From Ruditapes philippinarum (lineage: Eukaryota), in NCBI RefSeq assembly GCF_026571515.1, contig NW_026855281.1:1-64000 (forward strand): DNA of 64,000 bases, written 5' to 3'. Every line of letters starts with the position of its first letter. Position 1 is the first letter of the stretch. This document shows, in pieces, positions 11,778-52,640 of this stretch. Position numbers and translations under genes: made by a program. Below the pieces are notes generated by a model, which was not told the origin of the DNA, ran no database searches, and saw only the letters and a program-made list of their open reading frames with translations.

Positions 11778-11784
11778 ATGTCCC

Positions 11785-16445: not shown

Positions 16446-16519
16446 TGTTTTATTCTTTTTAATCTATTTGTAATCAAGTTACATGTATGTAAATAATCTT
16501 AATTCATGCTACATGTATA

Positions 16520-17140
16520 TCAATCATTTGAAGCATGTTTTCTGCTCCACGTTGACGGGTTCTGTATCTGCGAAGTCTGTGTAATAGCCGCATACGACCC
16601 TCTAGTAGTAATGTCTGTTGAATACTGTGTATAACGTTTGGCTCTTTTGCGACGTTCTTGCCGAACTTTACGGTTAGCCTGCATTTGAGCACGATAAATT
16701 TTCTTCTCGTCATCTGAATTCTCGGCGAGAGGATGCGCTTCGTGTTCCTCCACGACTTTCCACTCATGCTCGGAAGAATCAGCTTATTTAAACATTTTTT
16801 TACGATGCATAATAATGTCTATACCTTCTGATATTTTCTGTTTGGCGCCTTCTGTGTCTGCTGCGCTGAATGAATCGCCCGTGACGAGCTCTTCCGCCTG
16901 TCGCATTTTGTTAAGCACAAGGGTATTCACCTTGACCTGTTGCTCGTGACCCTTCTTCCTCAATGTTTATATATCGTCCATAGCTTTGATGGTAGAAATT
17001 TAAGACTGAAAAATCTCCCTTTGAACTGTATTGATACGCTGCTCAAAAGCTCCCAACTTCGAGTCGATAAGCCTCTCCATTTGAGACAAAAACTGATTTT
17101 CGCTGTGCATAGATCTAGACATTTCTCTGCTGCCAAGTGT
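16520..17140 (-). mobile_element. Degenerate gag/ORF1-like fragment of a probable DIRS/Ngaro-type tyrosine-recombinase retrotransposon
   Basis: Across a frameshift: KKGHEQQVKVN...ISEGIDIIMHRKK..K.ADSSEHEWKVVEEHEAHPLAENSDDEKKIYRA, a motif I recognise from invertebrate DIRS-group ORF1 proteins. No RT or recombinase seen. Confidence 0.55.
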
Positions 17141-17749
17141 AGTTAATAGCTTAAGTGCAACTTGATAAAACACGAGTTGTTAACGCTGTGAAATCGTCAA
17201 GTAGAGTGACCAATACACAATATTATTTTACACGCCAGTACAAAAAACCTTGCTTTTACCACCAATAAAAATGCCTACAAAAATACGTTACGCAAAGACA
17301 AATATTTCCCCCTATTCGATGAAACGCATGAAAATTATATTCTGCAGAACAACGGTTTTTGTTTACTATTGCATCATGGTTTAACTGGTAGCCATTTTGC
17401 TGAATGCTTTGGATGTTATAAAGAATTTCAATAAATAACTGCTTTAATAAAGTCATCTCAATGCTTGAATATTCATGAACAATAAAAAAAATACATTCAC
17501 ATGAAAATTATACTGATAACAATGTAAACCACCTAGCCATCTTACTTCTGTCTGTCTCGTCATAGTATGTCAAGACATAGAAACACATGGTATCAACAGA
17601 TTGCTGAAACTACAGTATCCTTTGCACGGGCATGCACTTTGTGTAATAATTTAACACAATCCAACGCCAGTTCAAGTATACAACCCCTTACCTCTCCAAA
17701 CAGCTTCTCAAAAGATGGAAGTGTGTCCCCACACACCATACCGGTACTT

Positions 17750-20330: not shown

Positions 20331-20352
20331 ATGTTTGAATAAATCAAAGTTT

Positions 20353-20436
20353 ACTCTCTCTCTCTCTCTGTCTCTCTGTCTCTCTGTCTGTCTGTCTCTC
20401 TCTGTCTGTCTGTCTCTCTCGCTCTCCCTCTCTCTC
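20353..20436. repeat. (CT)n/(CTGT)n microsatellite next to an assembly gap
   Basis: Directly visible; flanked on both sides by catatgtttgaa, the second copy running into the Ns. Confidence 0.95.
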
Positions 20437-21212
20437 ATATGTTTGAANNNNNNNNNNNNNNNNNNNNNNNNNNNNNNNNNNNNNNNNNNNNNNNNNNNNN
20501 NNNNNNNNNNNNNNNNNNNNNNNNNNNNNNNNNNNNNNNNNNNNNNNNNNNNNNNNNNNNNNNNNNNNNNNNNNNNNNNNNNNNNNNNNNNTTCCTGCCT
20601 ATCACACTCGCAGGAGGATGTCATATGAAATTCGTGACCAGGTCTTTCCTAATCAGAAAGATTCCTACTCGATATCCAATACGTATAGTTGCATGTCTTT
20701 CTGCCAATCAAACGTGTCCAGGTGTGAAATCATGTCACCACGAAAATTTAATAACTGTGATGAAAGGTCGGTTTGGACCTTAAAACGTAGTTTCTTGAAA
20801 CCGATGATACTCTATAAGCGAGTATGCCAAAAGCAGGTTTTATATAAAATAAAGAATGGAAAACATCGGTACAGCGCAAAGGTGCTTCCGAATTCTATTC
20901 GACTTTGCTGAAAGTAAATTTCTCTGTATAATGTCTCATCTCTTAGTAAGACATTCCTACGTTCATCATGATAAAATTCTAAACTTTTGCAGATAAATAA
21001 ATAGTTCCCCTGCCTTACGATTATCCATTTCTAATTTAGATATAACTAGGTGATTTCCCAAAGTTGCCACGCTCTGTCTAATTATAAAGCTCAAATCCTT
21101 GTGTTAGCCTGAACTCTTGTGACCTCATCTCAATGACAAAACTATCTCAGCAATCAAGAAACAAATTTGAAATGAATGCAAGTGACTAAGAACTTTATAA
21201 CGTTGATTTCAG

Positions 21213-24200
21213 GCGGACAATAAGCTTTTTGTGGCGGCCATAGACGTTGGATCTTCGTTTTCTGGTTGGGCATTTTCCTCTATTTCGGATTTAGAACAGG
21301 CAAAAACAAACATTCATGTAAAGTCTTGGTATTCAACATACACTTCATATTCCACTGGAAAAACACCAACATGCGCCTTGATAAAACCAGACGGTGAAAC
21401 ACTGGACTCGTTCGGCTATGAGGCAGAAAGAAGATATGATGAATTATTATCCAAAAACCAACACGAGAATTATTTCTTCTTTAAACACTTCAAAACTCGT
21501 CTGTATGTAAAGTATAATGAGGTAATATTATTTTCAAATTTTTTCCTCCTAGTGGTGGTGTATCTCGACGAATANNNNNNNNNNNNNNNNNNNNNNNNNN
21601 NNNNNNNNNNNNNNNNNNNNNNNNNNNNNNNNNNNNNNNNNNNNNNNNNNNNNNNNNNNNNNNNNNNNNNNNNNNNNNNNNNNNNNNNNNNNNNNNNNNN
21701 NNNNNNNNNNNNNNNNNNNNNNNNNNNNNNNNNNNNNNNNNNNNNNNNNNNNNNNNNNNNNNNNNNNNNNNNNNNNNNNNNNNNNNNNNNNNNNNNNNNN
21801 NNNNNNNNNNNNNNNNNNNNNNNNNNNNNNNNNNNNNNNNNNNNNTCCTTTTATCTGATCATCATATATGTATGTTACATTATTACCTTGTACTCTACCG
21901 TTCAATTTTTAATCTATTAATTTTTCGTCTAACATTTTTACAAAAAATACTTTACTATTAAAATAAACGATCCATCATGAGTGCACACTAAATGGAATTA
22001 TACAAAGACTGAATGAACTTTACAAAGGTTTTCTTTTATCTTATCATGATGAATGCATTGTCCATTTCACAGCCGTTGAACACAGGAATGAAGCTTGTTG
22101 ACCAATTGGGAAAGGTGCTTCCAGCAATAAAAGTATTTTCAGCAAGCATTTGGTTTTTAGCAAAGGACATGTTTTCTGATTTAGAGAAAAGATTTCAGGA
22201 TATTCGACTGGGAGATATAAGATGGGTTATTACTGTCCCTGCCATCTGGACAGACCAAGCAAAATATTTGATGAGAGAATCTGCTTTGCAAGTAAGGTCC
22301 TTTTCAAATAGATAGGTGTCCATTACCACATTTGCTGTCGGAATGGCATATTCACATACCTATACATATTTCGATTAAAGTTATATAAATATGAAATATA
22401 TAAAAGCTTTATTATAAATATATGTATTATTAAATGCCTCAAATATTTGACTTCTTTTCATTATAAACAATACTGTATCATCATCACCTACTGATCTTAA
22501 AACCAAAAGGGATCGTCTATAGTTATGACTTTCCTTCACAAGTTTTCATTAATCAAAACGTTGACTTTGATATGTCCACTTCTGACTTAAAGGTAAACAA
22601 GAAATGTTTGTATAACATGTATGTCCCCTATCGGCAGTCAATTAGTCAAGTGATCAGGTATTTGTGACCGTCTTTTGACCTTGTGATCAAAAAATTAATG
22701 AACTTCACCTTTGACCCTTGATCAATAGAAGTTATCTACTTGCCATGACCAATGCATGTACGAAGTTTGAGGGCCAACAATCAATGCGTTGTCAAGTTAT
22801 TGATCGGAAACTGTTTTACCTACTAGGTCAATGTGACCACCTGACATCAAAATCCATTTAGTTATTCTCATGGTCATGTGCCATAAATAACAGCGTATTT
22901 CTTATCAAGCTATTCATCAGACAATGAAATATTTAGGTAAGAAATTACTTACATACGTACATATATACGTACAGATCGATGCTTTCAAAGTATGCTTCCT
23001 CTTTGGAAAACAACTTGAAACGGATTAAATAAAAAGATAAAATATATACCAAAACTAATCAAGTGAAGATCCAAACTATGTCACCTACATTATGGTTTCT
23101 TGATTACAAATAACAACATACACATATCTGTTGTAGGCAGGATTACCATCGAACAGTATAGTTATTGCTCTTGAGCCAGAAGCTGCGTCAGTTTATTGTC
23201 GGCAACTTGATGTGTGTGCTGTTAATAGAGACACGGGTGTTATGTTATCTTCCCTGGAGGTTGGAAGTAAATACCTCGTGTTAGACGCTGGTGGTAGGTA
23301 TTCGGTTATTTTAAATAAAGGTACATTACAGGCCGATTACAATTGATATCATAATATATATTTAAAAAGGGTGAAATGTATTTTAGTTGTTCTCATACCG
23401 GTTTAAATTATTTACATGTATTTGTTTTTCATTATTACATCATAGTTCAAACACTGCAAAAATCCTCACTAGTGTTTTTTGATGTAAAAATAATTTAATA
23501 TCACATATTTTTGGAGTGTGAACAAAAAGAATCTGATTCTTTCAAAACTAATAATAAGATTTGTACACATGTATTATTCAAAGCACAACTTACTCTTCAG
23601 GTGGAACAATAGATTTAACAATACACGAAATTGCTCCTTCAAATCGTGTAAAACAAGTTGTTGTTTCAAGTGGAAATATTTTTGGTGGAAATGAAGTGAA
23701 CAATGAGTTCGAAAAGTTCTTAAAAACTGCTCTTTCTGATGAAAAGTATGAACAATTTAAAAAATTTGAAACTGAAGATTGGTTGTTTTTAATGGGCGAA
23801 TTTGAAGTGAAAAAGAAATCTTTTAATCCAGAAAATACCGATTGTGTGAATATGAGATTTCCGCAAAGTTTGAAAGATATATATGAAGCAGACAACCGAA
23901 AAACAATTCTACGAAAAGTCAAAAAGACAAAAAAAATTGAAAAGGCCTTGAACCGGACGGGCTTTGGCAAAGACATTATAATCAAACGAGACAAAATGTC
24001 CTTCCCATCAGATGTTTTCGTCAAGTTCTTCGGACCTGCTGTAGAAATGACAATACAACAAATGAAAAAGGTATTAGGAAACATGCTTGTAGGATCAATA
24101 TCCTGCATCTTAATGGTAGGTGGCTTCTCTGAATGTATCCTTTTGCAGCAAGTTGTAAAGTCTGAATTTGCTAACATTCCTGTTATTGTACCAGTAGAGG

Positions 24201-24688
24201 CGTCAACTGCAGTGCTTCAAGGGGCGGTTTTATATGGATATAATCCACCTGTTATTCTAGAGAGGGTGGTGAAATATACATACGGTGTTGCAGGTAGTTC
24301 AGATTTCAAACCGGATAAACACCCTATAGAGAAGCGTTTCGTCACTGATTTTGGAGTTCAGTGTAACGATATATTCTCAAAGCATGTTACTCGAGGAGAT
24401 TTAGTAAAATTTGACACGCAGCACAAGAAACGGTATTTCATACAGAATCGAAATCAGAACAAGGTACAAATTGATATATATGCATCAGAACTTTCAAACC
24501 CGAGATTTACTACAGACAAAGACTGTCATGTTGTTGGTAAGATCATCCTAGACTTATCTTGCACAGATGATATACGTAATAACCCAATAGAAGTTACATT
24601 TGCGTTTGGAGGCACAGAAATTACTGTAACTGCCGAAGAAGCAAAATCAGGGAGAAAAGTTAGTACAGTTGTCAGTTTTCTTGAATAA
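21213..24688 (+). CDS. HSPA12: Heat shock 70 kDa protein 12 family (HSPA12A/B-like); exons 21213-21521, 22073-22291, 23137-23293, 23601-24688 (~590 aa, start codon upstream)
   Basis: Canonical AG/GT junctions with matching phases 0, 0, 1. Motifs VAAIDVGSSFSGWAFS, KTPTCAL, FGYEAE, RWVITVPAIWTDQAK.LMRE.A, ALEPEAAS, YLVLDAGGGTIDLTIHE, GG..VN.EF, LMVGGFSEC, AVLQGAVLYG, FAFGGTEI. AATAAA at 24862. Confidence 0.93.
22598..23015 (-). mobile_element. HINE-like element in the HSPA12 intron between 22291 and 23137
   Basis: acaagaaatg...gtcccc terminus, repeated tgacc(t)ttgacc cores, and a (TACA/TACG) microsatellite remnant. Confidence 0.55.
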
Positions 24689-25819
24689 GATTGACACGAT
24701 TGACGTGAAGAGACAGAATAATATTTTGTCATCAACACTTCCGTGGATTAAGGTTAAGACTTAATAAGCAGAAAACTAACTATATATTTCACATTCCATT
24801 TAATGTATTCGAAAGTAATTTGGAAGTCTCTGTTCAGTTGTGTTTGTGCATAAACGTAGATAATAAATGATAACTATTACGAACTTAGAAAAATCCACGT
24901 ATTCAAATATATTCAAATACTGTTGACAGAATTGCTATGATAAAGATATTTCACCTAGTCATCTTGAGTCAGGTGTCAAACATCTGAGAAACATTGGTAT
25001 CAGCTTAGCCTTTTTTATTTCACAATTTAAATACGATTTGTTATTATTCCAAATTCATGATTATTTGTGACGGATAGTAGTACAATTTGAAAGTAGGTTA
25101 CCTCATTCTTGGCACCGAACTTGAAGTTAAAAAAAAAAACAGAACTTCAACAGGAAGCTAAAAATATAATACGGAAAACCCAAACATTTAGATTTGTATA
25201 ACATTATTTCTGGGCGCATACTATGATAGAATATTGAAAATTGAGACAATCATCATTAATCGTAGGTTTACTAGTACCTTAATTCGTAAGCATGTTTATC
25301 GGAAGTTAGGGTCTAAATCATATAGTTCTGTTATTGAGTGTGAAGGCGTAGTCTTTGACTTATTGCAGCAATTATTTGTTAATATTCAGTGGTATGGATA
25401 AATTTCAAACAAACCTATGTTTTCCTAAGGTAAGGATATTTGAAAATGTCTAGCCACATATGTTTGCTTATTGTAGCTACTACATGAAAGACGAAATATT
25501 GTGTAACACATATATGGTATTCATTTTTATATGAATTTGCAATACATTTGCATCGGATTTTAGGCACGACAAACCATTGTATGCCATTAAAATGATATTT
25601 TTAGTAAATCGACACATAATATAACATTTACAACAAATAAACCACCTACATATTGCATTTAATTTCGTTTTTAAAGACCAACATCGTGTAGTTTGTGTCA
25701 TTTGTCACTTGAAAACCATTTTGTGTAAACTCGTTTTTTTTCATTAAAGGATGTTTTTTGTTTTGTTTGTTGTTTGTTTGTTTGTTTTTTTTTTTGTTAC
25801 TGTCACTTGAAATGTAAAA

Positions 25820-26190
25820 CTATGTAAATGTAATAGTGTATATTGGTGCTACAGATGCAATGCAGTAAAATAGTAAAGAAATGTACGCAAAATTAAAATT
25901 TTTCAATTCAGAATTTGTATTTAACACAACTGCCTTTTTTGAAAGTAAATGCATATCAACAGAGTAAGTGGGACATTGCAAAAGCACATGTATTTTATTT
26001 TTAACAGAGTCTTTACAAAACAGACATACTCCTTTAGATTCAGGTAATATTTTCATTACGCCGTCCAGTTTGTAGTCGAAGTGGTGCTACCACATCTAGA
26101 CTTTGCTAATGCAGATCTATGTGCATATGGTAATTGTAATTTACAATATGTTTTATCCTCATACGTATTTTATTTTTGATAGAACACCAT
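25820..26190 (-). mobile_element. Degenerate LINE 3' fragment
   Basis: HRSALAKSRCG...VCLFCKDSVKNKIHVLLQCPTY zinc-knuckle remnant. Confidence 0.6.
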
Positions 26191-26554
26191 TTACCGTTTG
26201 TATTTCTTATCGAAAAAATGGAAAGGCTATTTGAGAAAATTATGAAAAAAAACATGTGTTGTTTAATAATATAGATAAAAACACATCTTCAGGGGATATA
26301 TATTGGTTACATCTCGAAATGGATGGATCTTCTTCCTTTCGATGAGAAATCTTTGAAATATAGTCATGAATAATTTCGATCTAGAACTTGTATTGACTCC
26401 AGTGGATTTTGCAAGACAACGATCCGACAAGACGCGAAACCGTTTTCACACCCGGCTGCCGGCATAGAATTCCTAGCTCACGGTAGCTTCATTCCAATGT
26501 TTTTTACAAATATAGCTCTCAAAGAACTAAATTTGTTAATAAAGAAAGGACCGT

Positions 26555-27100
26555 ATAATAATAATTATAATAATAATAATAACTCATTTGAACAACATAT
26601 CAATTTTGCAAGAGGCCCTTAACAAAGAACAATATAAATTTAACATATTCAAACTATTTAAATACATACATGTAAAAGTATACATGTGATAAACAACTTG
26701 TATACATTGATGTGTGATAATATCAGAGATGTAGCAGACTTGATATAATCAGGAAGTCCGTTCCAAATACAAGTTCCAGAATAAATAAAAGACTTACGAA
26801 ATTGTTCAGTATTTGGTCTAGGGGTGTAAAGTTAAAAATCAGATGATGAGTATGAACATCTGATGATGAAACGAATTTTATTTAATAAATAAGAAGGCGC
26901 CTGATAATTCATTATTTTAAACATCGTAAAAGCTTTTTGAAAAACAACCCTCTGTGAAAAGGTAATCCAGCGTAGTTCAGAAAATAGTTCAGCAGATGGA
27001 GTATCATAATATTTGTCTAGAATTAGTCTTGCAGCTCTCTTTTGGAACTTAATGAGTTTATCTTCAAGAACAGACGTGCAGTGACCGTATACCGTTTTTA
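26555..27100 (-). mobile_element. Degenerate CR1/L2 LINE 3' end with (ATT)n tail
   Basis: KLIKFQKRAARLILD...SAELFSELRW...FRKSFIYSGTCIWNGLPDYIKSA; (AAT)n run at 26555-26582. Confidence 0.75.
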
Positions 27101-27949
27101 TGAATAAATCTTACGGTAAGCTGTAATCACGCTTTTTGATTGACAGAGTATCATTACGCGATATGGAAACCTACTATAGCCAGACGCAGAACAGGAACCG
27201 GAAGAAGGGACTCGGTGAGGCTGGACTGTCTTTACTATCATTGAATGTAAATGGACTAAGTAGATCGAAATTGGAGGACAATGACTTTATGAAGAAACTG
27301 TGTAATAATGATACTATGTTTTTGTTTAATAAAATATCTAATTTTGATATAGATGGGTATACAACTTTTAATTTCTATCGTAAATTTCAGAACCGGCGAG
27401 CGAAGCGATCTAGTGGTGGGGTATTAGTATACATTAAAAATGAAATAAGTAAAATGGTTACCGTTGTACAGAATCATTTTGACACTTTCCTTGGTTGAAA
27501 CTTGAAAACATGTTTTTTTTTTTCATTTTACCGATGACATTTATTTAGCTGATGTATATATTTGGGTGGAAGATTCCCCTGCTTTAAACTTTATCAGTGG
27601 TGATTTATTTGAATTATGCAAAACAATATTTCTGTTTATGAATCACATGGCATTACATTTTTAACTGGTGAATGGAATGCACGTACATGTTATGGAGACC
27701 GCAAGGATGATATTGTTTGTGATCGTACCGGTAGTTTTATAGATTATGATGATTATTCTCCGGACATGCCTTTCGAACATGTGTCCAAGGACCATCTATA
27801 TAATAATTCGGATATCAAATTATTAGATGTGAGTACGAATTCCAAGTGATTGGCTTGGTCGTGATATTGGAAACAATACTTATAAATGTTCATCGGGATC
27901 TAGTGTCAGTGACTATCTAAAATTTTGGTGCAGTAAATTATTTTCTACT

Positions 27950-28675
27950 TTAACTTTTCCATTTCGTAAGGTATCAACTTCAAACTTCAAATATGTTATT
28001 TATCATCAACCACATCTTATGCGACAAGATAAATAACTCTCGCACCAATATTTGCAGATTTATCTCCCCTTGACGTATAATTGTTCTTTAAAATATTATG
28101 TTTTACTGTAACTTCTTTATTTCCTTAACGATCAACTTCATACTTCAAGTATATGTTCCTTATATCTGACAAGGGTCATAATTCTAGCACTAATATTGCA
28201 AAAAATTATCTCCTCATTAACTTGGATTTTTTACTTGAAAAATGTTATTTCTTCATTACAACTTCTTAAGTTTTAAAGGTATCTTACTCAAACTTCAAAT
28301 ATATACTCCTTATCATCAACCAGATCTTATTTGACAAGGTTCATAACTCTTGAAGCAATATTTCCAGATTTTTTTCTCCCTTTGAACGTTTTGAAGAAAT
28401 ATGATAACTTCTTATTAATAGGTTTCTTCTTTAAACATCAAATAAATATTTCTTATCATTACACACATGTTGTGTTACAATGTCCATAACTCTAATGTGA
28501 TTATTTCCAGAATTATTCCCCCTTGAACTTGGAATTCATGTTAACAAATTTAACTTCGTGTCATAAGAAGAATTATATTTATATCATAATTGATTTTCTT
28601 TTATAATTTCGTCTTCTTTACTGCGTCCAATATTTAATTATTCGAGCTTTGCTGTCTCCTGTGACAGCTCTTGTT
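27950..28675 (+). mobile_element. HINE-like element fragment with internal tandem cores
   Basis: Repeated aacttcaaatat...ttatcatcaacc...ataactct...ttatctccccttga units; 3' end cgagctttgctgtc...gacagctcttgtt hairpin. Confidence 0.6.
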
Positions 28676-29380
28676 CTATTAAATGTCACGTATTTGCACG
28701 AGGATAATGATATTTATTATGAAAGCACTACTTGACGATGGAATAGTGAGTTACAGAACGAATTCCGTAAAGGTCTTATAATGTTAAAATACTATTACCG
28801 AAAATGTTAATTTTAACGTAAGATTACATTTTAATTCATGTATCGCATTCTTTGTAAATGTGAGAAGTGTGGCAGATCCATTATTTAGTAAACGTAGAAG
28901 AATATATAATACGCCATGTGCCGATGGTAAACTATGTAAAAAGTCTGAGAAGTTTGATGAAGATTGAAACGTTCAAAAGAGGTATATTTAGGTTCTGTAT
29001 CTAAATATAAGATGAATAAAAAATAATGAAAATATAATAGTATAAAAAGAATGTGTACTAAAAACTGATTGCTAAAAATGATCAAAAAGAAATGTAGTTA
29101 TGAGATAAATATGTCAAGAACTATTGAACCCCTGCGTCACTGTTAACCTAAAAAGACGATACATAAGAATAATATTCCGATAGAAGATTTTTTGAGCTCT
29201 TTTTTTACCCTTAGTAATGATCTGCCAAATGCCTTGCATACCAAACGTAATTTTGCATGTTACAAAAATTAACTTGTATCTTATAGTATTGATGTACTGT
29301 ACGAGGAACTAGATGAACCTTTAGCAGTTGGTGAAACATATTGTGTTATTCGTTATTTAAAGAAAAATAAGGCTTTGAAG

Positions 29381-31444: not shown

Positions 31445-33288
31445 TGATTGGAAACTGTTTTTACCTACAAGGTCAATGTGACCTTTATCTTTGACAACCT
31501 GACCTCAAAATCAAAAGGGATTATCTTATGGTCAGGTCCCATAAATAACGGCGTATTCCTTCTTAAGTTATTAATCGAACAATGAAATGTTTAGGTAAGA
31601 AATTTCTTACATACGAGCATACATACGTATACGGATCTATCCTTTCAAAGTATGCTTCAACTTTGGAAGTGGACCATAAAACAACTTGATTCGAATTAAA
31701 AAGAAAACAGATAAAATATATGCCAAAACTAATTCAATAAAGGTCTAAACTATGTAATTTTCATTATGGTTTCTCTATTACAAAAAGGCTGCGTCAGTGT
31801 ATTGTCGGCAACTTGATGTGTGTGTTGTTGATAGAGATTCGGCTGTTACGTTATCTTCCCTTGAGGTTGGAAGCAAATACCTCGTGCTAGATGCTGGTGG
31901 TAGGTTGTCGGTTATTTTGAGCTTTTAAAAAAATAAGGTACATTACCTGTCGATTACATGACCATAATTATAATAATATTTATCGTAAAAAGATTTTCAT
32001 TTCAAATTTGAAATGTATTTTGTTGTTCTTGTATCGATTTAAACTATTTATTTGTTTATCATTAATACATCATAGTTCAAACACTGCAAATCCTCACTAG
32101 TGTTTTCATGTAAGAGTTTTCTTAATATCACATATTTTTTCAAAACAAGTAACAAGATTTGTACACATGTATTATTCAAGCATATCTTATTTTTTAGGTA
32201 AAACAATAGATTTAACAGTACACTAAATTGCTCCATCAAAATGTGTTAAACAAGTTGTTGCTTCAAGTTGAAATATTTTGGCGGAAATGCAGTGAACAAG
32301 GAGTTCGAAATGTTCTTGAAAACTACTCTTCCTGATGAAAATTATGAACAATTTAAACAATTTTAAACTGAAGATTGGTTGTTTCTAATGGGATAATTTG
32401 AAGTGGAACAGAAATCTTTTCAGTCAGAGAAAACCAAATGTGTGTATGTAAGATTTCTGCTAAGTTTTAAAGATATATATGAATTATACAAACGAAATTC
32501 ATTTCTACGAATAATGAAGAAGACAAAGAGTATTGAAAAGGCCTTGAATCGGACGGACTTTGGCAAAGACATAAGTATCAAACGAGACAAAATTTCCTTC
32601 CAATCAGATGTTTTCGTCATGTTTTTCGGACCTGCGACAGACATGACAACACAGCAAATAAAAAAGGTGATAGGGAAAATGCAAGGAGGAACAATTTCCT
32701 GCATTTAATTGTAGGTGGCTTCTCTGAATGTATCCTTTTGCAGCAACTTGTAAGGTCTGAATTTTTTTCACATTCCTGTTATTGTACCAGTAGAGGCGTC
32801 AACTGCAGTGCTTCAAGGGTCAGATTTGTACGGATGTTGTTCGCCTGTTGTTTCAGAGAGGGTTGTGAAATATGGTGTTTTAGGTAGTACAAAATTCATT
32901 CCAGATAAACACCACATAATGAAACGTTTGGTCACTGATAGTGGAGTTCAGTGTAAAGATATATTCCACGAGCACGTTACTCGAGGAGATTTAATAAAAT
33001 TTGACACGCAGCCAAGGAATGGTATTTTCCACAAATTCGAAATCAAAAGAAGGTAAACTTCACAACAGCAGGTGTCAAGTGCTTTGTGGCAGCTGTAGCC
33101 TTTGCTAGGGGGCGTGAGGGATGTTGCACGTATTCATTATCCCTCATGTACAGACTCAATCAAACCGAGTCTGCAATTTTCAAGATCATCCTATATTTAT
33201 CTGGCTCAAATGACATGTGTAATCACCCACTGAAAGTGACATTGCCTTTAGAGGCACAAAAATTACTGTTACTGCAGAAGACCCAATA
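31445..33288 (+). pseudogene. Partial genomic duplicate of HSPA12 (last two exons and flanking introns), pseudogenised
   Basis: Colinear with 22800-24640 including intron sequence. The acceptor and start of the 23137 exon are deleted; in-frame stops (near 32269, 32364, 32394) and frameshifts; foreign insert at 33058-33181. Confidence 0.92.
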
Positions 33289-33778
33289 ACTTAAGATTCC
33301 TTTGACTCACAGTCTTCATATTTGGCATAAAGGTTAGTCATGATTAGTAGGTGACCGCTATTGATTTTAACGTCACGGGGTAAAAGGTCAAGGTCACATG
33401 GACTTGGACTTCAAAAAGATTGTTCGCCAATTAACTTAAGATTTCTTTGACTCACAGTCTTCATATTTAGCATTGATGTTGATCATGACCATAAAGTGAC
33501 CCCTATTGATTTTGCGATCACTGGGTCAAAGGTCAAGGTCACAGCGACCTTGGCTAAACAAATCTTTTCCCCTTAATTGCTTAAGAATGCCTGTCCGCAG
33601 TGTATTGATTTTGACATTTTCACAATTGCAGCATGTAGAATACATAACTTAGCAATGCACTGGCTTAGTAACCTCAGATTTGGCAGGGAGGTTGTCCTTG
33701 AGCTCCAAATGGCCACTGTTGATACTGACAAAGTGGTATGCGGAGGTATTCACGGCATGACAGTGGCAGCTCTAGTTA
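33285..33778 (+). mobile_element. HINE-like 3' fragment
   Basis: Two tandem cores with aaaggtcaaggtcac; terminal ...cagtggcagctctagtt. Confidence 0.6.
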
Positions 33779-36508
33779 CAATAGTGTTTTACGTGAAATC
33801 TTAATGGAATAAGAATGTCTGTTATAGCAATTTTTAATATGTTTCTCTCGCGAGAAGGACGGAACCGAGATAATGACGTATTATACCAATTTATAGTATA
33901 GTTATGTACGCTACATATATATTGATATATAACTTCTAATTCTTATTACATATATTACATGTATTAAAATGATTTTATTAATCTAACCACATATTTTAAT
34001 TCATTTAACCTCAACTTTATTCAACATCGACGATCAAGCTTGACGATGATCTCTGGCTACATGATTTACGCAATGTCTGCTTTATTTTCAAGGTAAAACA
34101 TTTTCATTTGCGAGCGTACATGTCACAATTCAGAACTGTTCACTTTTTTGAGGAGAAGATGTGTAAGCGGTCGAATAACTGCTCTGCCGGTAGAGCCGCG
34201 GTACGTTGTTTCGAGGGTGCGTTAACATTTGTTTTTATACATGTACATAATTTGCAAAAAAGTAAAACAAACCCATTACGAGTATACATGTTTGCAAATA
34301 AATAAAAGTCCTTTTTGTCATGTTGCAACATTGCATTTGTTATATTTGGTAGGAATTGACCCCCTTGTAATTACAAAGTTATAATGAATAAAGTTTTGGA
34401 ATATCCAGAAAATCCATTTTAGAATTAAAGGTAAACATCATAGATAAAAAACTCTTATTTTTACAAACAGTTACGATTCAGCCTATCTGCATACAGTTCC
34501 TAGAAATTTATGTCAAAGCTTTTTAAAAATGTTCTATTAATTGATGATAATATATCTTGATTCTAATGTGAACTGGTGATTAACGAATTTGTAATTTGGC
34601 AATTGAGGTGCCTTTTGGAAGAGGAAAACAGTATTTATGAACAAAACACATATGAATATGATTTTACTTTGCTGTAACATTTGAGAAAGTATTTCGTAAA
34701 CACAATATGGTGTGCTTTCCAAATCTATATGTAGTAAAAGGAAAATTTGTATTATCCAATTGAGTCAAATATGTACGTACAGACAGAAAGATAATGAAAA
34801 TTGCGAGTGATAATTTAAAGTTTTTCCCATAACAATGTCACGTTTATGCTGTTTATATAACATGGATTACTATACTAATATTTACGGAACTATATGAAGA
34901 ATTATAGATTTATAAATGCGTGTTGTAAAAAATGTTTTGTGTCTTTTTGTAATTGGCGAAATGCACGACATAAATGTCTATACCAAGGCAGATAAATTAA
35001 TGAATGGGTGATTAATTATATATGCATGAGTCAGATAGTTCCGTGATAACGTTTTTTTTTAATGAAGCTCAATATGTTTAGAAGTAGGCTTTGTGGTTGC
35101 AATTTGCTCTCCGTGTGCCGTCTTTAGTTCGCCATTATCCTTAATACCATTTGCGTAATTTCGACAGAAGTTCAAATGGGGTACAAAAATAATCTAAGGT
35201 CTAGCTCTATAAAGGTTATATAAATAGTGTCTCAATTTGTTAAGTATGTACGTCACAATACCTAAAAGTAGAAATATACAAACAAAGAGATCCTTCGGAA
35301 GCATAAATCACAACAAAATTGCAATAAATTAAAAGTCCAATTTTAAACAACGTCTTGCCCAGAGCATTGCATGTAACATCACCACGTGGTCCAGGTGGTC
35401 CGCTTAAAAGTAAATATAAATCATAACCCTGGGCAGTCACTTTGTGTATATATATCTATATAATTATATATGGGGACATTTAAGTCACCTTGTGTGCAAC
35501 TATAATTCAGATAGCTTGCATAATAGCATAGCCTTGAAGACCTTTTGAACAATTTTGTTCGAAGTTTACTCCACGGGTCAAGAATGGCGTGTGTTTTGGT
35601 CATACTTCATACATAGGAAACTATTATAACATATTAATCGAGATATAACAATGTATTTTCGGATGGACTTCTTAAGTTTTTAAAAGGCATTCTGGTTGGT
35701 CTAAAATGACATTGGCCAGTGTGACCCAATTGCCTTTTACATTTAAGAATTATGGCCTCAACTCATGCATATTCCTCAAGCTCTATTATCATTATTATAT
35801 ATATATTCTCACTCACCATTATTTACCTTTACTTTAAATTGGCTTTATTTGTGATTTACGATTTATTTTGTAACCCTTAATTATTTAAAGCAACTTTGAT
35901 TGTACTTACATAAGCATTGTGAATTTTATTAAACATACTTAATTTTCTTTCTTACTACAATTTGATCCCCAACTTATGTATATGTATATACTCTGGAAAA
36001 TCTAAAAATTATCAAGTTTTTGTTGCTGTTGTTTTTTTTGTACAATATTGATTTTTAAAAATTATTTTCAACTCTTTCGTTGTTAAAATCAAAGTATTTT
36101 TTAGAACATAAGATTTTTATATCTTACATCTTACACTCATTTAAATGATTTAATGATACACAGAGCTTACATGTTTTTTATTATTTTTTTTACATTTTAT
36201 CAAATTTATAAATTGCATAAACGAAATAATTGACCTTATGTTTAAATGCAATATATATTGTTTAGTAAACCTTTACCGTAATATTTGAATAGCAAAACGT
36301 TTTGAATTGATTTAAAAAGTATGTGTTTATGAAATACCAGAAAATTGTTAAGTGCATAAATATATATGAACGTTTATATATACGTTTTTTGTTGTTGTTT
36401 TTTTGTTGGTTTTTTTTTTTTTTTTTTTTGGGGGGGGGGGGGGGGCTTAGTTAATTTACGTGCGTTTAATAATTGTTAGATTTTAAAATCATTATTTTAC
36501 TGATATGA

Positions 36509-43733: not shown

Positions 43734-46302
43734 ATGTTATTTAGACAAGTTGAGAGGGCAAAGCNNNNNNNNNNNNNNNNNNNNNNNNNNNNNNNNNNNN
43801 NNNNNNNNNNNNNNNNNNNNNNNNNNNNNNNNNNNNNNNNNNNNNNNNNNNNNNNNNNNNNNNNNNNNNNNNNNNNNNNNNNNNNNNNNNNNNNNNNNNN
43901 NGAGAGGGCAAAGCAAACTGGAATGAACTTTACATAAGGGTAGATTCAATATTCAGCATCTGCAGCATCTGACTTTCCTCTAATATTTGTGTGTACTAAA
44001 GAGCCATAGGTGGGGGCAAGAAAAGTCATTGACAGGAGATATATATCCTCCTTATTCGTTTCGATAGTTACACAATTTAGCATCGGATTCGTTGGATATA
44101 TTTGTTCTGGTACATCCAAAATATGCCATGCGTATGCAGCAATAAAACGATTTAAAATGTAAATTATTAACGTAATCTGACTGCAGGAGAATGCTTAACA
44201 TTCAAGCAAATCGTTTTAAAACAAACCTGTCTACGCATTGTGTCGGGGGCTTTATTCTGTGAACATTGCCTTGCCTTGTTGATCTTTATTCTCATTTTTA
44301 TAAACGCCTGTAAATGCATTAACAATTGCCGTAATTTACAAAAAGCGTTATAATATGAATTAAATAGTCATAATCAAAAGCGTGAATGCGCGATTAAATG
44401 CGTCAACACTTGTTAACAAAATGCGTTATACTTTATGCAAAATAATGTTAAATTATATATATTTCTTTCAAAACATGTAAGACACACAAATACGCAGAAT
44501 TTACAAAAATAATGAATACAACAGGGCTTACACAGAATAAAAGGAAAATATTTTGAATATATAACATTAGGTCGGTCACTAATCACAAAACAATATCTTA
44601 TTGAATTCTAAGAGTACAATATATTTTTTGTATCATAGTAAAAAGACCTTTCAGGTGCAAAAGTGTCGGAGTTAAATCATATACATCACATATATAAGTA
44701 TTTCTAATAAAATTCGTTTATTATCCCTGTACCTTTTGCATAATTATTCTTCGCAGTTTCAACAAATCAGAAAATGTTATATTTTTGCTTGTTTAGATAT
44801 ATATACATATCTGGACTTCTAGGAAAGATATTGAAAACATCGAATTTGTAGAAAACTGTTGAATTATGTGATATCTAGACCAAATTACCGTTTTTAAATC
44901 GGCTAGTTCGTGTTTTAGATTTAACAAAACAGTATAATAATGAATAACCTAAATAGCAGTAAGATTCAAATCCAAATGTCCTATGACTTTTCTGTTTAAT
45001 TGTAATTTGTAGAGAAAAAAGACCTTTTAATATGCCTTTCACGCCTTCTTTGTGTCCTTCAAAATTTGTAAACAATGATCAAAAAAGACGGTTGGCATTA
45101 AATGAAGGCATCTCCCAACAAAACCAACCGACACAGGACCACTCGCAAGAATCCGAGCAGGACACCTATGACTTAGCACAATCATGTCATTGAAATAGTT
45201 CATTGAACGCCGCCTTTCCTTGTTGATCTTGTTTTTCATAAATGATATTCATTGAAAGAAAAGGAATTACTACAAATGTAGTAGTTCTTTGAAATTCAAA
45301 AATTAATTAGTCATTTTTTAATTCAAATGCCGTCAGCGAGTTCTTATAGACTAACATTGACAACTTTTTTTTTTATTTAACTTGCCATAAGATTTAGTTT
45401 TTAATGGATTTATATAATAATCCGATAAAAGAAGCGTATGCTTTCAACAGAAATTCTTTATGTTTCATGCGAAAGCAATGAATATTGTTATGTTTATCAT
45501 AAAAAGTCAAAAAAAAAAATATATGCAGAAAACTTTTACATCGACATTTAATTTGAAACTTAATTGAAATTTTGGTTGTGTTCATTACTGTACACCATAC
45601 GAAAATTATTTGTCTACACGCGGGTTTTAGTGACGTAACACAACAAGTAACATGGCGACCTTTCGTTTAAAATCCTTAAGAATTTTGTGTTTTACATGGA
45701 TGGGATCTATTTTGACGGTATTTATGTTGTTTTGTCATTTATTTTAACAACTTTTATAGTTTGAAGTATAAATATTAACGTAACTAATTAATTTAGACTT
45801 TATATTCATCTGTTACGCGGAATCAAATCAAGCATATAAAGGAAATGCATTCAGTCAAAAGCATCTCACATGCAAAGTAAATCGGCATCTTAGATAAAAT
45901 ATAATACTTATAGTACTTATAAAGAATAATGGTGTGTAGATACGTTATTTATATCGTAAAATATTCGTAATATAGGTATGTTCAATTTTTTTTTCAACGG
46001 AAACGCAAATAGGTCATAAATCAGCTCGTGCAATATCTACAAAAATGTAAAATATTGACTTTATCAAATGTTTATTAAATGTTTTGTTTATTTCAGGAAG
46101 AAAATTTGCATTGTATGTAAATATATACTAAAATGATCAAAGTCAAGTACTTTAGTTATTTTCAAGTAACTTGTTCCATGAAAATTTTCTTCATATTAGC
46201 AAGTCGTTTTTTTATGAAACACCTTAATAGCAATTTTATTTCACAAGTCAAGTTTTCAACTTCAGTGTTTAATTTGATGATGTTAGTTTAGTTACCAGTT
46301 AA

Positions 46303-46810: not shown

Positions 46811-47719
46811 TTAATATAAAGTTCTCATCTGAAAAGAATCTGATTACAGAAGCGCATTATTTCAGTCTTGCTATTATTTCAATCAATTTTTGAATAAACA
46901 TAGGATAAAATAATTCTGAAAAGGAATAATTTTATTTAATTGTTTTATATTAAAGGTGATAATTTGCATCTGGTGTGTGCATACAGATTGAAATAGAAAA
47001 ATTAGAGATGTCTTCCAAGTGAATGAAGGTATGTTTAATATTGCTTTACTTTTGTCTTGCGTTCATTGAACGCCGCCTTTCCTTGTTGATCTTGTTTATC
47101 ATATTTTTTGCATCATAACATCTGCTTTTATTTCCTGAAATGAATATAATTACGAGGTCTGATGTGATGTGAGATTTTTATTAACTAGATTAATTTATAC
47201 ATGTTAAAACACACATTTCATGATAAAATTAAGATTTTATTATAATTTCATGTTTTGCAGTTTAGCCTCTATATCTCTGAATCTTTGAGGGACAAGAAGT
47301 AAAAAACGTAAGGATACATTTTGCCTATTTTTTACTAACATTGTAGCTCATAATAGTACAAAGCACATATGTATGTTATAAATACCGATTTAAAACATAA
47401 TGAAATCCGCCTTTAAACATGTGGATACAAATATATAATATAAACTATCTGTTCAAAGGTTTTTACAAACATATTTCAGGTTATATTTTTTGATTGACCA
47501 GATTAAAGCAAAACAAAACATAAATTGTAGGCACACGCAATTTTGCTACATGTATTATAAGTTGAAAGATTATTCTTATTATATCAATTCCTGTTCGGTT
47601 GTAGATAGAGAAATGTTCCATTTGTCAAGAGTATGTTAATGATGGTTAACCAGTTGTTCTACTAGGGTGCAGTGGCATACAAAATATTAATGACAGCACT
47701 TCAGTGTAGTTGTTGTAAA

Positions 47720-50445
47720 GCCAGGAGACAAGGCGTATGTCTAGTGTAGAAGAGACTACGAGCACACGTCGCAGAAATAAAGAAGTTATCACTAAAGCTT
47801 TGAATGTAGATCCACTTAGAAAATAAAGATCATATAACAACACATTTGATTTTAAAAACCAGATGTGTATTGTGTGCTTCACCTGCAACATTTTTTTCAT
47901 CAAGGAAAAGATCACATGAAGTTTAGATTTTCAAAATAAAATATTGGAAAACTGTCTTGAGCAGGTGTCAAGTGCCGTGTGGCAGCCGTAAAAAGTTGCC
48001 CCGTACTTCACTTCAGTGTTGTTATATTTTCTGGTCCTTCGGGATCATTGATGCCAACACTATAAAGTGTTGAGAATTGAGTACCGCTCAAGCCGGTGCT
48101 AGGGGGCGTGAGGGATGTTGCACTTTTTCATTATCCCTCATGTACAGACTCAATCAAACCGAGTCTGCAATTCTTATGTTATTTTGTTGTGATTAATGCT
48201 TCCGAGGGATCACTTTGTTTCCAGAGTTTTTGTACTTCACAACAGCAGGTGTCAAGTGCCGTGTGGCAGCCGTAAAAAGTTGCCCCGTACTTCACTTCAG
48301 TGTTGTTATATTTTCTGGTCCTTCGGGATCATTGATGCCAACACTATAAAGTGTTGAGAATTGAGTACCGCTCAAGCCGGTGCTAGGGGGCGTGAGGGAT
48401 GTTGCACTTTTTCATTATCCCTCATGTACAGACTCAATCAAACCGAGTCTGCAATTCTTATGTTATTTTGTTGTGATTAATGCTTCCGAGGGATCACTTT
48501 GTTTCCAGAGTTTTGTACTTCACAACAGCAGGTGTCAAGTGCCGTGTGGCAGCCGTAAAAAGTTGCCCCGTACTTTCACTTCAGTGTTGTTATATTTTTC
48601 TGGTCCTTCGGATCATTGATGCCAACACTATAAAGTGTTGAGAATTGAGTACCGCTCAAGCCGGTGCTAGGGGGCGTGAGGGATGTTGCACTTTTTCATT
48701 ATCCCTCATGTACAGACTCAATCAAACCGAGTCTGCAATTCTTATGTTATTTTGTTGTGATTAATGCTTCCGAGGGATCACTTTGTTTCCAGAGTTTTGA
48801 GAGAAATTATGAATGGGCAAATGAAGTGCAATTAAGATTGAGCCACGTAATAGATTTACCAGTAGCTGACGCGATATACCATCAGGCATAAATTGTTAAT
48901 TTCCTGACTGAAAAAAGTATCCCTATGGCATTTAATCTAGTAGGACAGTCTCTGATAGCAACGGAGATTAAATCCCCTGGAAGGCCAGTTATTAATAAGC
49001 AGTAAGACGCTTTTAACAAAGTTATAGATATGATTGAAAGTTGTGAAAATGCAAGCTTAATTGTCACAGACTTAGTGAACAAAATGACAGATATATGTGA
49101 GAGACGTCTTATTCAATCAAACATATGAAGGAGAAAATAATGGATAACTTTGGAGAAGCGGTTATTGTCAGTAACATTGGAGGAAGGAATGATATTGTGA
49201 CACTAAAAATAGTGTTCTTCTGTTGTTCAAAACTTTTATAAATAAATAAGAGAATTATCTGATAATGAAAAGAAACAACAAATCATTAATGCTGCTGCTA
49301 ACATTATTTTAACTGATATCAATAACTTAGTTGATCAAAAGAAAGTTATCCTTTATTCAGTGACATTTCATCACAAGAAAGAAACCTTAAATACTTACCA
49401 TACTGTGTATAATACAATCATGTCGACCAAAATATTTATCTGCTCAATTACAAGTTGGATTTGGTGTTTAATTGCACCACCATTTTGGATCAAGGTTCTT
49501 GGAAGATACATTAAATAGCCTTGGGATTTGTTGCTCCTACTATGAAGTCCAGACGTATGAAGAAAACGCTGCCGCTGTTTTATCAACAAAAATACCATGC
49601 CAAGATACAGGTTCGCCTTTTTGCATTTTATTGCTGACAATGTAGAACACAACTTAAGGAACAACAAGGAACACAACAAGGAAAGGCGGCGTTCATTGAA
49701 CGCCGCCTTTCCTTGTTGATCTTGTTTTTCATATTTAAGAACTCAGGATGGACAAAATACGTTACATGGAATGGGAATCATAGCCACTTCTTATCCAGGC
49801 TCTGCAATGACTGTACGTGTCCCTAGAATATACGTGTCAATGAATGATATATCAACACTTGAAAGAGTTGACACAAAGTATTTCGTGCAATCTGAGTCAC
49901 ATGAAGAGACCTTGCGGTTTTTTGCACTACCTGATATTCAAATGAAAAAAATGGTGAGCCATTGGACATGCTTTGCAAGCTTGTTTGGCCGTTTAGGCAA
50001 ACAAGACAAAAACTAGTCAAGGTTTTTGCAGACATTTGAAAAGCCTAGTGCATTATATCCGAAGAAGTCAACAATAACTTTTATGTCTATGATAGATCTA
50101 CGTCCAAGCGATGCTACATGTATCTATTTAACATTTCATTTCGTCTGTGAACAATCTCAAAAATACAGAAAATACACCAGTGTTAACATTTGAACAGCAA
50201 CTTTATCAAAAAGCACTTGATATCATCTTCTGACAAGGACCGTTAAAGAAAATAGTTTTGCGCTTAGGGGCGTTCCATACAGAAATGAGTTTTCTGGGCT
50301 GTATAGGATATATTATGACCGGATCTGACCTACAGGACGTGCTCGAGACAATATATGCACTAAATGCTGTTACACACATACTGTCTAGTAAAACTGTACA
50401 TCGTGCCATCAGAAGTCACATGCTAGTAGATAATGCATTAAAGAA
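47720..50445 (+). mobile_element. Degenerate Academ-like DNA transposon transposase
   Basis: Across stops and frameshifts: CLERNYEWANEVQLRLSHVIDLPVADAIYH, GRP, ADNVEHNLRTQDGQNTLHGMG, PVLTFEQQLYQKA, LRLGAFHTEMSFLGCIGYIMTGSDLQDVLETIYALNAVTHILSSKTVHRAIRSH. Superfamily assignment is from motif recall. Confidence 0.65.
47960..48798. repeat. Tandem array of ~3 near-identical 283-284 bp units inserted in the transposase relic
   Basis: agcaggtgtcaagtgccgtgtggcagcc at 47960, 48244 and 48527; units differ only by single-base indels. Diverged relatives at 33058-33181, ~35265-35325 (minus), 50830-51430 and 52015-52640. Confidence 0.95.
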
Positions 50446-50830
50446 GATACTTACCGTAGACGAGAAACAACAAGGGGCACAAGAAAAAGTATCACCAAAA
50501 CAGTTTGAAACACCATAGACATACATCTGAGGAACACGGAGGGGCACCGCCTTGGAACGGTCAGCAGCACAAGTACTGCTGGGGAATTTAAACCGGTTAA
50601 TGGTGCACCAGACCTCACTCTTAGCCCCACCATGTTCCTATAAACGAGACAGTTTAAATAAAATGAATCCTCGCCACGTGAAATTCTAACAGTTGTCATG
50701 GTTACAAAAGGTGAAATAAGTAAAACACCAAAATGATCATGTAGAAACATATAAAATTAAACCCAATGAGCATAACAAAAGTACTCGATGTCCTAAAGGA
50801 AGACAAAAAAAATCACATACAAGGGCCCGA
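50445..50830 (-). mobile_element. Probable Penelope-like element 3'/pLTR fragment
   Basis: Minus strand reads gagtgaggtctggtgcaccattaaccggtttaaa...ctgaccgttccaaggcggtgcccc, a common mollusc repeat end that I associate with Penelope-like elements. Inverted homolog at 51640-51750. Confidence 0.45.
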
Positions 50831-51639
50831 GCCTGCAAAACCGAGCCTGCAACATTTTCAATTTTGTCTATTTGCGTTCATTGAACGCCGCACTTCCTTG
50901 TTGATCTTGTTTATCATATTTTTGGGGGCTTTCTTAAGTCTTTATTTCACTATATTTTATCTCCACATCAGCGTTGTTTGTGCCGTGTGGAGGCTGTAAA
51001 ACCTCGCCCCGTACATTCAGTCAGGGATGTTATATTTCCGATCCTTAAATCGTTTAGCACGACATTATTGTTGTGCTTGTAGTATTTAAGTATTTTCTAT
51101 TCGGCATCTGCGGATGTTTAAATATTCTAAATGTTACCAGTTCATGTAGAATGTTGAATCCTGCTTAAGCCGGTGCTAGGGAGGTAAACGGTAAAATAGA
51201 GAAAAACAGAATCCCTTAAGAAAGTCCAACACGCCAAAATTGAAAATTTTGCAAGCTCGGTTTGATTGAGCCTGTTCATGGTAAAATATGGTTAACAAGA
51301 TCAACAAGGAAAGGGGGCGTTCAATGAACGTTCAATGGTAACTCGCACTTTCCATTACCAACCATGAACAGGCTCAATGAAACCGAGCCTGCAACATTTT
51401 CAATTTTGTCTTGTTTGGCTTTCTTTAGGGATTCTTTATTTAAATCTATTTGATTTAGCATGTTCATTATGACACGCAAGTGCCATTCCATGAAAAGCAG
51501 CGTATGGTCCCCAAGTAAAAGGAATGTGTGTGCCCTAAACGAGAAAACAATGAGCGAAATTAAATAAGAAGGTGGTCCAAAGATCAAGAAACGCAAAATA
51601 AATGACAAATTGAAAACAGACTCAACACACAGCGGCACA

Positions 51640-52010
51640 GCGGCGCCCCACTGTGTTCCTCAGATGTATGTCTTATGTTGTTTCATACTGTTTTGGTGAC
51701 ACTTTTGCTTGTGTCCCTTGTTGTTTTCTCGTCTACGGTAAGTATCTTCCCCATTGCCTCTAGTTTTTATTTCTTTGATTACCCCCCCCCCCCTCCCCCC
51801 CGGTCTCCTGTCCCCTTCCCCTTTGTGGGCCTAATCAGTTACAAAATTAATTATCATTTAATGATTAATCTGTCCGTGCTCTGTCTTTGCCCTGTCCTGT
51901 TTTTGTTTGGGGTCCCCCTGGGCTCCTTGCCATTGGTTTTTGTTGCTGGGTCATATGGGGGTTGCGTTCATTGAACGCCGCCTTTCCTTGTTGATCTTGT
52001 TTATCATATT
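51640..52010 (+). mobile_element. Probable Penelope-like element 3'/pLTR fragment ending in the recurrent terminal motif
   Basis: Ends ...gggggttgcgttcattgaacgccgcctttccttgttgatcttgtttatcatatt. The same terminus occurs at about ten other sites in the window. Confidence 0.5.
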
Positions 52011-52014
52011 CAAT

Positions 52015-52640
52015 CCAGCTAGGTTTGCAATTTTCAATTAATTTTGTTGTGAATTATGCTTCGATGGATCACTTTGTTTGAAGATTTCTATACTTCTCAA
52101 CAGCAGGTGTCAAGTGCTGAGTGGCAGCGGTAAAACGTTGCCCCGTACTTCACTCCAGTGTTGTTATATCTTTCTGCTCCTTCGGGATCATTGATGCCAG
52201 CACGATTTAGTGTTGAGAATTATGTACCGCTCAATCCGGTGCCAGGGTGCGTGATGGATGGTGCACTTATTTATTATACCTCATGTACAGATTCAATTAT
52301 TTATTATACCTCATGTACAGATTCAATCAAACCGAGTCTGCAATTTTCATGTTATTTTGTGGTGATTAATGCTTCCGAGGGATCACATTGTTTCCCGATT
52401 TTATTACTTCACAACAGCAGGTGTAAAGTGATGTTTGGCAGCTGTAACAAGATACCGCGTACTTCAATTCATTGTTGTTATTTTATGGTCATTCGGGATC
52501 ATTGTTGCCGCTCAAGCCGGTGCTAGGGGTCATGAGGAATGTTGACTTTATTCATGACCAATCATGTACATTCTCAATCAAACAGAGTCTGCAATGTTCA
52601 TGTAATTGTGTTTTGATTAATGCTTCTGAGGGATCACTGC
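52015..52640. repeat. Diverged tandem copies (~2) of the 284-bp repeat family
   Basis: cagcaggtgt(c)aagtg at ~52101 and ~52415; ccggtgc.aggg; caatcaaac.gagtctgcaat; contains a ~29-bp internal duplication at 52268-52326. Confidence 0.85.

Follow-up and report, generated by a model that had tools for sequence, protein, structure and literature searches.

The 284-nt repeat that forms a short tandem array at 47960–48798 (+) of the window, by which we mean the whole 64,000-nt stretch of Ruditapes philippinarum DNA analyzed here, is a dispersed mobile element with several thousand insertions. We refer to it as family A. Its unit is very probably a non-autonomous derivative of Naiad, a Penelope-like element (PLE), and most likely an internally deleted Naiad that is copied in trans by the Naiad protein. 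The original prediction of a structured, non-autonomous, tandem element mobilized by a Penelope-type partner is supported, and the partner can be named as Naiad from a shared 5′ hairpin.

The array and its surroundings in the window

Running TRF on the window gave a repeat of period 284 at 47960–48799, with 3.0 copies and 99% matches, which bears out the tandem repeat as first described; the array itself (47960–48798, +) comprises 2.95 copies of the unit. The unit had been read from 47960, and its natural start is instead 48231, right after a T-run. In this register, the array consists of one unit 5′-truncated by 13 nt (47960–48230) and full units at 48231–48514 and 48514–48798, with a T-run at its end. 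For the + strand of the array, the folding energy is −103.7 kcal/mol (z = −6.31), a value matched by 0 of 200 shuffles, and the − strand reaches a fold z of only −2.14. In the register that begins at 48231, a single unit reaches −107.7 kcal/mol (z about −9, 30 shuffles), and its fold comprises a 5′ hairpin and a long branched domain. The unit had been pictured as a chain of local stem-loops, half of which stood: ggcagc/gttgcc, tgagggat/atccctca, and cagactc/gagtctg have a mean pair probability of 1.0 each, and the other three of the six named hairpins (the UUCG hairpin, caacact/agtgttg, and ttgag/ctcaa) have a probability of 0.0 because long-range helices outcompete them. The long-range pairing gttgtga/tcacaac, also proposed, likewise came out at 0.0. 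None of the 44 family-A units examined had a both-sides change in any of the six hairpins. The A-T to G-C double change at ~51369–51391, which had been ascribed to a diverged relative of the unit, is present, but it sits in a piece of a sister family, family B (51337–51451), rather than in a diverged 284-nt unit.

The host of the array is a decayed copy of a multi-copy, long-ORF element (46870–50441, +). It is interrupted by the array at 47960/48798 and again, at about 49658–49733, by a Naiad fragment. The empty site for the window array was seen in four other host copies. The host element has an open ORF of 1,112 aa at locus L195 (2177–5515, −) and occurs in few copies. The host ORF gave no match of note in Pfam; it may be related to Academ transposases.

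Naiad and family-B pieces lie around the array. A 50-nt Naiad 3′-end fragment occupies 47057–47106 (+), with similar fragments at 45198–45240 (+), 50872–50921 (+), and 51284–51331 (−), and a short 3′-end fragment with an inverted (fold-back) 5′ piece lies at 49674–49736 (+). A piece of Naiad 3′UTR (50444–50830, −) contains a twister-like fold at about 50536–50636. Family-B pieces in both direct and inverted orientation, holding the double change at 51369–51391, span 50955–51567. Beyond them, a Naiad 3′ end of about 370 nt (51640–52010, +) is joined directly to an older family-A array (52010–52638, +), which is 76–81% identical to the unit and 5′-truncated at unit position 204. The window also contains other family-A fragments, one of them internally deleted, and a 145-nt tandem repeat of unrelated sequence (33057–33178, 35280–35319, 33282–33562).

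Family A in the genome and its Naiad partner

A sequence search of the 1.41-Gb genome returned at least 93 matches, with 40 of 168 candidates scored. Exact-pattern counts reached 7,641 for 3′-end 22-mers, 2,901 for hairpin 28-mers, and 2,520 for unit-unit junctions, with 0 in reversed-pattern controls, and read depth in a DNA-like run corresponded to about 9,700–28,800 unit equivalents of family A. In two runs labelled RNA-Seq, X21 and X22, reads are chimeric at GATC sites and GATC junctions are duplicated. These runs have the appearance of proximity-ligation DNA libraries and served for copy number only. Each family-A array holds about 1 to 8 units. The unit is tandem and non-coding (no ORF), with a stable fold and with neither a SECIS nor a twister-like fold, and no relatives were found in viral contigs. 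Individual loci varied: one array mixes units of 82–97% identity (L012), two are built of 297-nt units with an insertion common to all units (L009, L020), and one ends elsewhere than at the T-run and is flanked by a 23-nt duplication (L016).

The 3′ end of the arrays is fixed in the T-run, in 23 of 27 first arrays, 47 of 56 overall, and 40 of the 47 loci fetched with family-A queries only; the 5′ ends of the same array set are scattered. Seven of 47 5′ ends fall at unit positions 281–5, though these loci were picked as best full-length matches and a pile-up is thus not readable. No fixed target-site duplication was detected, with flank matches of 4.2 against 4.1 in the control. A test anchored on the T-run found duplications of at least three letters in 10 of 36 cases against 14% in the control, which is a weak signal, and a 5-nt duplication at the window array overlaps element letters on both sides. 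Targets are AT-rich and mostly not (TA)n. Family-B or Naiad pieces lie ≤200 nt from 11 of 47 array 5′ ends, and 19 of 94 windows taken from distal parts of those loci contain them as well, which shows clustering and not co-insertion; inverted 5′-adjacent pieces and composite insertions occur at several loci and in the window, again with no enrichment over distal parts.

The 50-nt motif that recurs near the array marks the fixed 3′ terminus of a second family, which likewise ends in a T-run. This family carries an upstream reverse transcriptase (RT) ORF with an N-terminal GIY-YIG domain, a CxC linker, a DKA motif, a C-terminal RT, and in-frame TGA. These diagnostics and the selenocysteine positions match those published for clam Naiads (Craig et al. 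2021, PMC8557442). The partner in the same genome is a young, selenoprotein-type Naiad PLE, with copies 98–99% identical. A SECIS-like stem 3′ of its ORF scored 33 bits against SECIS_1 (E = 0.0036), the gathering score of 35 not being reached. Pfam gave no match on the own-genome Naiad pieces; it did identify GIY-YIG in two Naiad relatives (65–66% RT identity), and homologues carry PF00078 and PF01541. The clam elements Naiad_Mmer and Naiad_Scon (PMC8557442) share these motifs, selenocysteine codon positions, and the SECIS-like stem with the partner; family A differs from them in having no ORF, SECIS, or twister-like fold and in its mostly non-(TA)n targets.

Several observations were made on Naiad-related sequences along the way. 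The own-genome Naiad ORF has four in-frame TGA codons, one of them in the CxC linker (L061–L062), and up to six occur in the long ORF of a metagenome contig (among L149, L138, and L141). A protein filed under a Campylobacter name (P0022) is 59% identical to the Naiad RT and is probably animal DNA in a bacterial assembly. At locus L063 (reverse strand, 2505–2837), a short ORF with a coiled-coil-like stretch lies upstream of a truncated Naiad; it probably belongs to another retroelement, and presumably ends in a 2A-like peptide.

The strongest link between family A and Naiad is at the 5′ end. Twelve of 19 Naiad loci reach the 5′ end, and in all 12 the element follows immediately on a Naiad 3′ end and opens with one common hairpin. 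This hairpin is 83% identical to that of the family-A unit over 60 nt and 90–94% identical to that of family B, and the Naiad_Scon consensus in the supplement of PMC8557442 starts with it too. The 3′ tail of the unit bears only a loose likeness to the young Naiad 3′ end.

Family B has a non-coding unit of 629 nt, also in tandem (L061, 4527–5155), with the same start and middle block as family A and its own fixed T-run end. Young copies are 96–99% alike, and an older subfamily ranges over 73–94%. Positions 131–224 of the family-A unit are 76–79% identical to family-B positions 478–572, and this shared block keeps its loop sequences and helices with double changes. Family B is closer to a Naiad other than the young one (L153; 68% over 82 nt, E = 9e−5). 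As part of its interior resembles the 3′UTR of another Naiad, sequence comparison suggests that family B descended from a Naiad by internal deletion. Among the 25 of 150 RT matches checked, none was a parent Naiad whose 3′ end resembles that of family B; this and the loose 3′ likeness of family A count against the Naiad-derivative reading.

The junction RNA domain

The unit begins with a 70-nt hairpin, located in unit 2 at 48239–48306 (+; unit positions 9–76), with positions 26–85 forming the stretch that resembles the Naiad 5′ end. In an alignment of 12 sequences, 96% of cells were paired and both-sides changes occurred at 7 of 20 pairs, a result reached in 0 of 500 shuffles and with slid controls far lower. 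The covariation that had been proposed as a check on the element is borne out for this hairpin across families. Within family A it is weak: 4 of 97 pairs were changed on both sides and 191 of 500 shuffles scored as high. Paired sites in family A are also as variable as unpaired ones (0.040 and 0.035), and there is one clear compensatory pair, 118/234, which is T-A in 22 units, A-T in 17, and otherwise in 5 (39 of 44 units paired). A metagenome scan yielded 53 Naiad-related loci, 12 of which hold the T-run and hairpin; these metagenome Naiads are partly close relatives and fall into some five or six lineages, whose RTs, where fully covered, are 63–66% identical.

Beyond the hairpin, about 55 nt are predicted to pair with about 55 nt before the tail, at −31 to −60 kcal/mol. 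This was examined in 11 sequences (family A, family B, Naiad, and eight from metagenomes, with L138 left out). Ten of the 11 beat all of 200 shuffles and one was beaten by 2 of 200, in a comparison in which the shuffles ignore relatedness. The pairing sequences differ between families, and the own partner was the best in seven of eight rows. The predicted pairing is stronger in sense than in antisense in all 11 and contains 4–10 G-U pairs. Within unit 2 (+), the predicted panhandle has its 5′ strand at 48317–48363, which holds the UUCG hairpin as a competing local fold, and its 3′ strand at 48464–48498. Between them lies a predicted four-way junction with three hairpins (48356–48463), and the 3′ tail (48499–48514) ends in the T-run that is the fixed insertion end and the putative start site of reverse transcription. 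Most families have a short local hairpin behind the linker (in family A, the UUCG one); it reaches p ≤ 0.05 in 6 of 11, in one of them via a different fold, and may represent another conformer. No panhandle emerged when distant Naiad-like contigs were coarsely scanned, though two of three known positives were missed as well.

In the structure that these predictions describe, both unit ends would pair over about 35–40 bp, and the panhandle, the U-rich tail, and the 5′ hairpin would constitute one junction RNA domain. We regard it as evenly balanced whether this two-end domain of ~200 nt marks the clam-type Naiad template, fixes the RT start, and allows read-on, with family A as a natural 284-nt minimal substrate that would have lost the ORF, the SECIS, and the twister-like fold. 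Read-on by the RT across the junction would explain both pseudo-LTRs and tandem arrays without a hammerhead. In the boldest version of this reading, to which we give a slim chance, family A circularizes through a ribozyme class not yet described.

Array formation, rival explanations, and known systems

Unit-unit junctions are exact, and junction length is constant save for homopolymer variants. Units in one array share one subfamily haplotype, with a mismatch of 0.042 against 0.433 when shuffled (0 of 1,000 as low; 23 arrays, 64 units), and in 14 of the 23 multi-unit arrays, a rare variant is common to all units. Exact-pattern counts place roughly one in three 3′ ends at a junction and give 0.87 junctions for each hairpin, against 0.84 expected with constant fall-off and no stop at the unit start, though the patterns differ in sensitivity; at this ratio, the template behaves as continuous across the junction.

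From these features, we infer that family A is mobilized by the Naiad protein. In the proposed scheme, the Naiad GIY-YIG domain would nick AT-rich DNA, and the Naiad RT would bind the junction domain, with the hairpin after the U-run as the putative binding site by analogy with the PLE PAc. Reverse transcription would begin internally at the U-run, as that of PAc does in vitro, and would run through successive junctions until fall-off, leaving arrays of about 1–8 units. As reported by Frangieh et al. 2024 (PMC11167929), PAc Poseidon in vitro starts internally, requires RNA 3′ of the start, can dispense with its hammerhead, and uses an AT-rich target. That element belongs to a C-terminal endonuclease clade and starts in an AC-rich stem-loop inside the ORF, whereas the start in family A would be a U-run beside the 5′ hairpin. 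Within the Naiad-derivative reading, the template could plausibly be a linear transcript longer than one unit, though we hold this tentatively; a covalent circle is possible; and an exact re-jump on a panhandle-closed monomer appears rather unlikely.

The original prediction had leaned on animal retrozymes, and its remark that no canonical hammerhead core is present was accurate: CUGANGA is absent from both strands of the circularly read unit, and without this core a hammerhead is ruled out, however its strands might be ordered. Searching Rfam with the array and two 161-nt parts gave no ribozyme at E ≤ 10, only weak unrelated matches, and we found no twister, with its UAA/GAGG loop, P2, P4-L4, and two pseudoknots, in family A. 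Having neither a hammerhead nor a twister core, nor an Rfam ribozyme match, the unit is not a retrozyme as defined. A true retrozyme would here require an unknown self-cleaving ribozyme, seated either in the bulged 5′ hairpin or in the four-way junction that family A has in common with family B, that yields monomer circles for rolling-circle reverse transcription. Such an element would be compatible with mobilization by Naiad, from which it differs in the processing step. The exact junctions and single-haplotype arrays agree with it, the rare variants carried by all units of 14 of 23 arrays are as expected from repeated multimerization of monomers, and the block shared by A and B is conserved in loops and helices. 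The lack of any known ribozyme in the unit speaks against it. A family-A stretch does look like the 3′ half of the twister consensus, but family B alters those bases in a way that preserves a plain helix instead. We consider a true retrozyme improbable.

The RNA-seq data also lean against a retrozyme. In two unstranded RNA-seq runs, family A accounted for 959 of 7.37 million reads (X23) and 2,070 of 11.05 million (X24), or 130 and 187 per million. These reads are 35–50 times rarer than in DNA and mostly 90–95% identical, as of old copies inside other transcripts. Monomer-length or circular junction reads had been suggested as a sign of a retrozyme-like element. Only 6 and 27 junction reads were found across the listed junction joints, depth dips at the junction, and there was no pile-up of starts or ends on the unit, nor was an abundant monomer seen in the two runs. 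The data argue against an abundant monomer in those libraries, from which a small non-polyadenylated circle may have been lost. In a further set, X1 (contigs, RNA origin guessed), depth is far greater on family A than on the Naiad ORF; depth is a poor measure there, and it was left uncounted.

Cutting is made plausible in the lineage by the twister-like fold of the autonomous Naiad. This 3′UTR fold, of P5 order with P2–P5 and both pseudoknots, is 89% paired in 13 sequences, with both-sides changes at 10 of 24 pairs and 51 of 52 pseudoknot cells paired. It lies about 420 nt from the Naiad 3′ end (window 50536–50636, −; L052, L138–L169). Rfam twister-P1 scored 24.1 bits (E = 0.0026) and 16.5 bits (E = 0.42) on the Naiad 3′UTR against a gathering score of 67.2, which is weak support. 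The fold has no cis P1 stem, with a palindromic stretch in its place; P1 has been reported as dispensable in twisters (PMC11662667). No pile-up of Naiad truncations was found at the predicted twister cut. Naiads are reported to be without a canonical hammerhead (PMC8557442).

The within-array homogeneity and shared rare variants could equally arise by local duplication, that is, by array growth at the DNA level alone (slippage or unequal exchange) after insertion of a monomer, the tandem state then having no role in copying. This is very unlikely: arrays are non-integer, with the first unit truncated and the last complete, the same junction recurs in many arrays, and a junction of this kind is also seen in the autonomous Naiad.

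A fixed end together with a variable end is also what rolling-circle transposition leaves. In bivalves, Helentrons are reported to be frequent carriers of short, dispersed tandem arrays (PMC7492417, PMC3879986), yet it is extremely unlikely that the unit forms the core repeat inside a non-autonomous Helentron/HINE or other DNA rolling-circle element, as there are no shared flanks among the 38 5′ and 40 3′ flanks compared once those holding A, B, or Naiad pieces had been set aside, the beginning of the unit shares homology with an RT element's 5′ end, and the end pairing, with its G-U pairs and its weaker other strand, is that of RNA and not of a DNA inverted repeat.

With a Naiad derivative as the preferred reading, family A can be set beside known systems. 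It shows 5′ truncation and partial or multicopy head-to-tail insertions, as non-autonomous Naiad and Chlamys PLE derivatives do. The MRC1-type Chlamys elements described by Craig et al. 2021 (PMC8557442) are, like family A, non-coding dependants of PLEs with an N-terminal endonuclease and form head-to-tail multicopy insertions; they are algal and defined by 3′-end similarity, whereas family A has an animal Naiad partner and its strongest match is the 5′ hairpin. For family A a covarying end-to-end pairing is predicted, and that text, as far as available, describes no such RNA structure for Chlamys elements. Animal non-LTR retrozymes (Cervera and de la Pena 2020, PMC7229834; Li et al. 2026, 10.64898/2026.07.22.740005) share with family A the dispersed tandems of a few hundred nucleotides, the stable fold, and the PLE origin. 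They differ, in the same sources, in having a type I hammerhead per unit and abundant circular RNA, neither of which was found for family A. Family A is thus retrozyme- or MRC1-like in its logic, and it is not a member of the retrozymes. The class is already known from algae (PMC8557442). The literature searched, in the parts available and outside Repbase, Dfam, and most subscription papers, any of which may list the family, held no description of non-autonomous animal Naiads, of such an element lacking a ribozyme, or of an RNA domain that joins the ends by such pairing.

These results bear on how PLE reverse transcriptases choose their template and make pseudo-LTRs. A conserved, covarying junction RNA domain in an autonomous element and two of its non-coding parasites names a likely cis signal, and family A supplies a 284-nt RNA with which that signal can be tested. 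Family A also shows that a tandem element can resemble retrozymes and yet carry no known ribozyme; screens that look for hammerheads would miss such elements.
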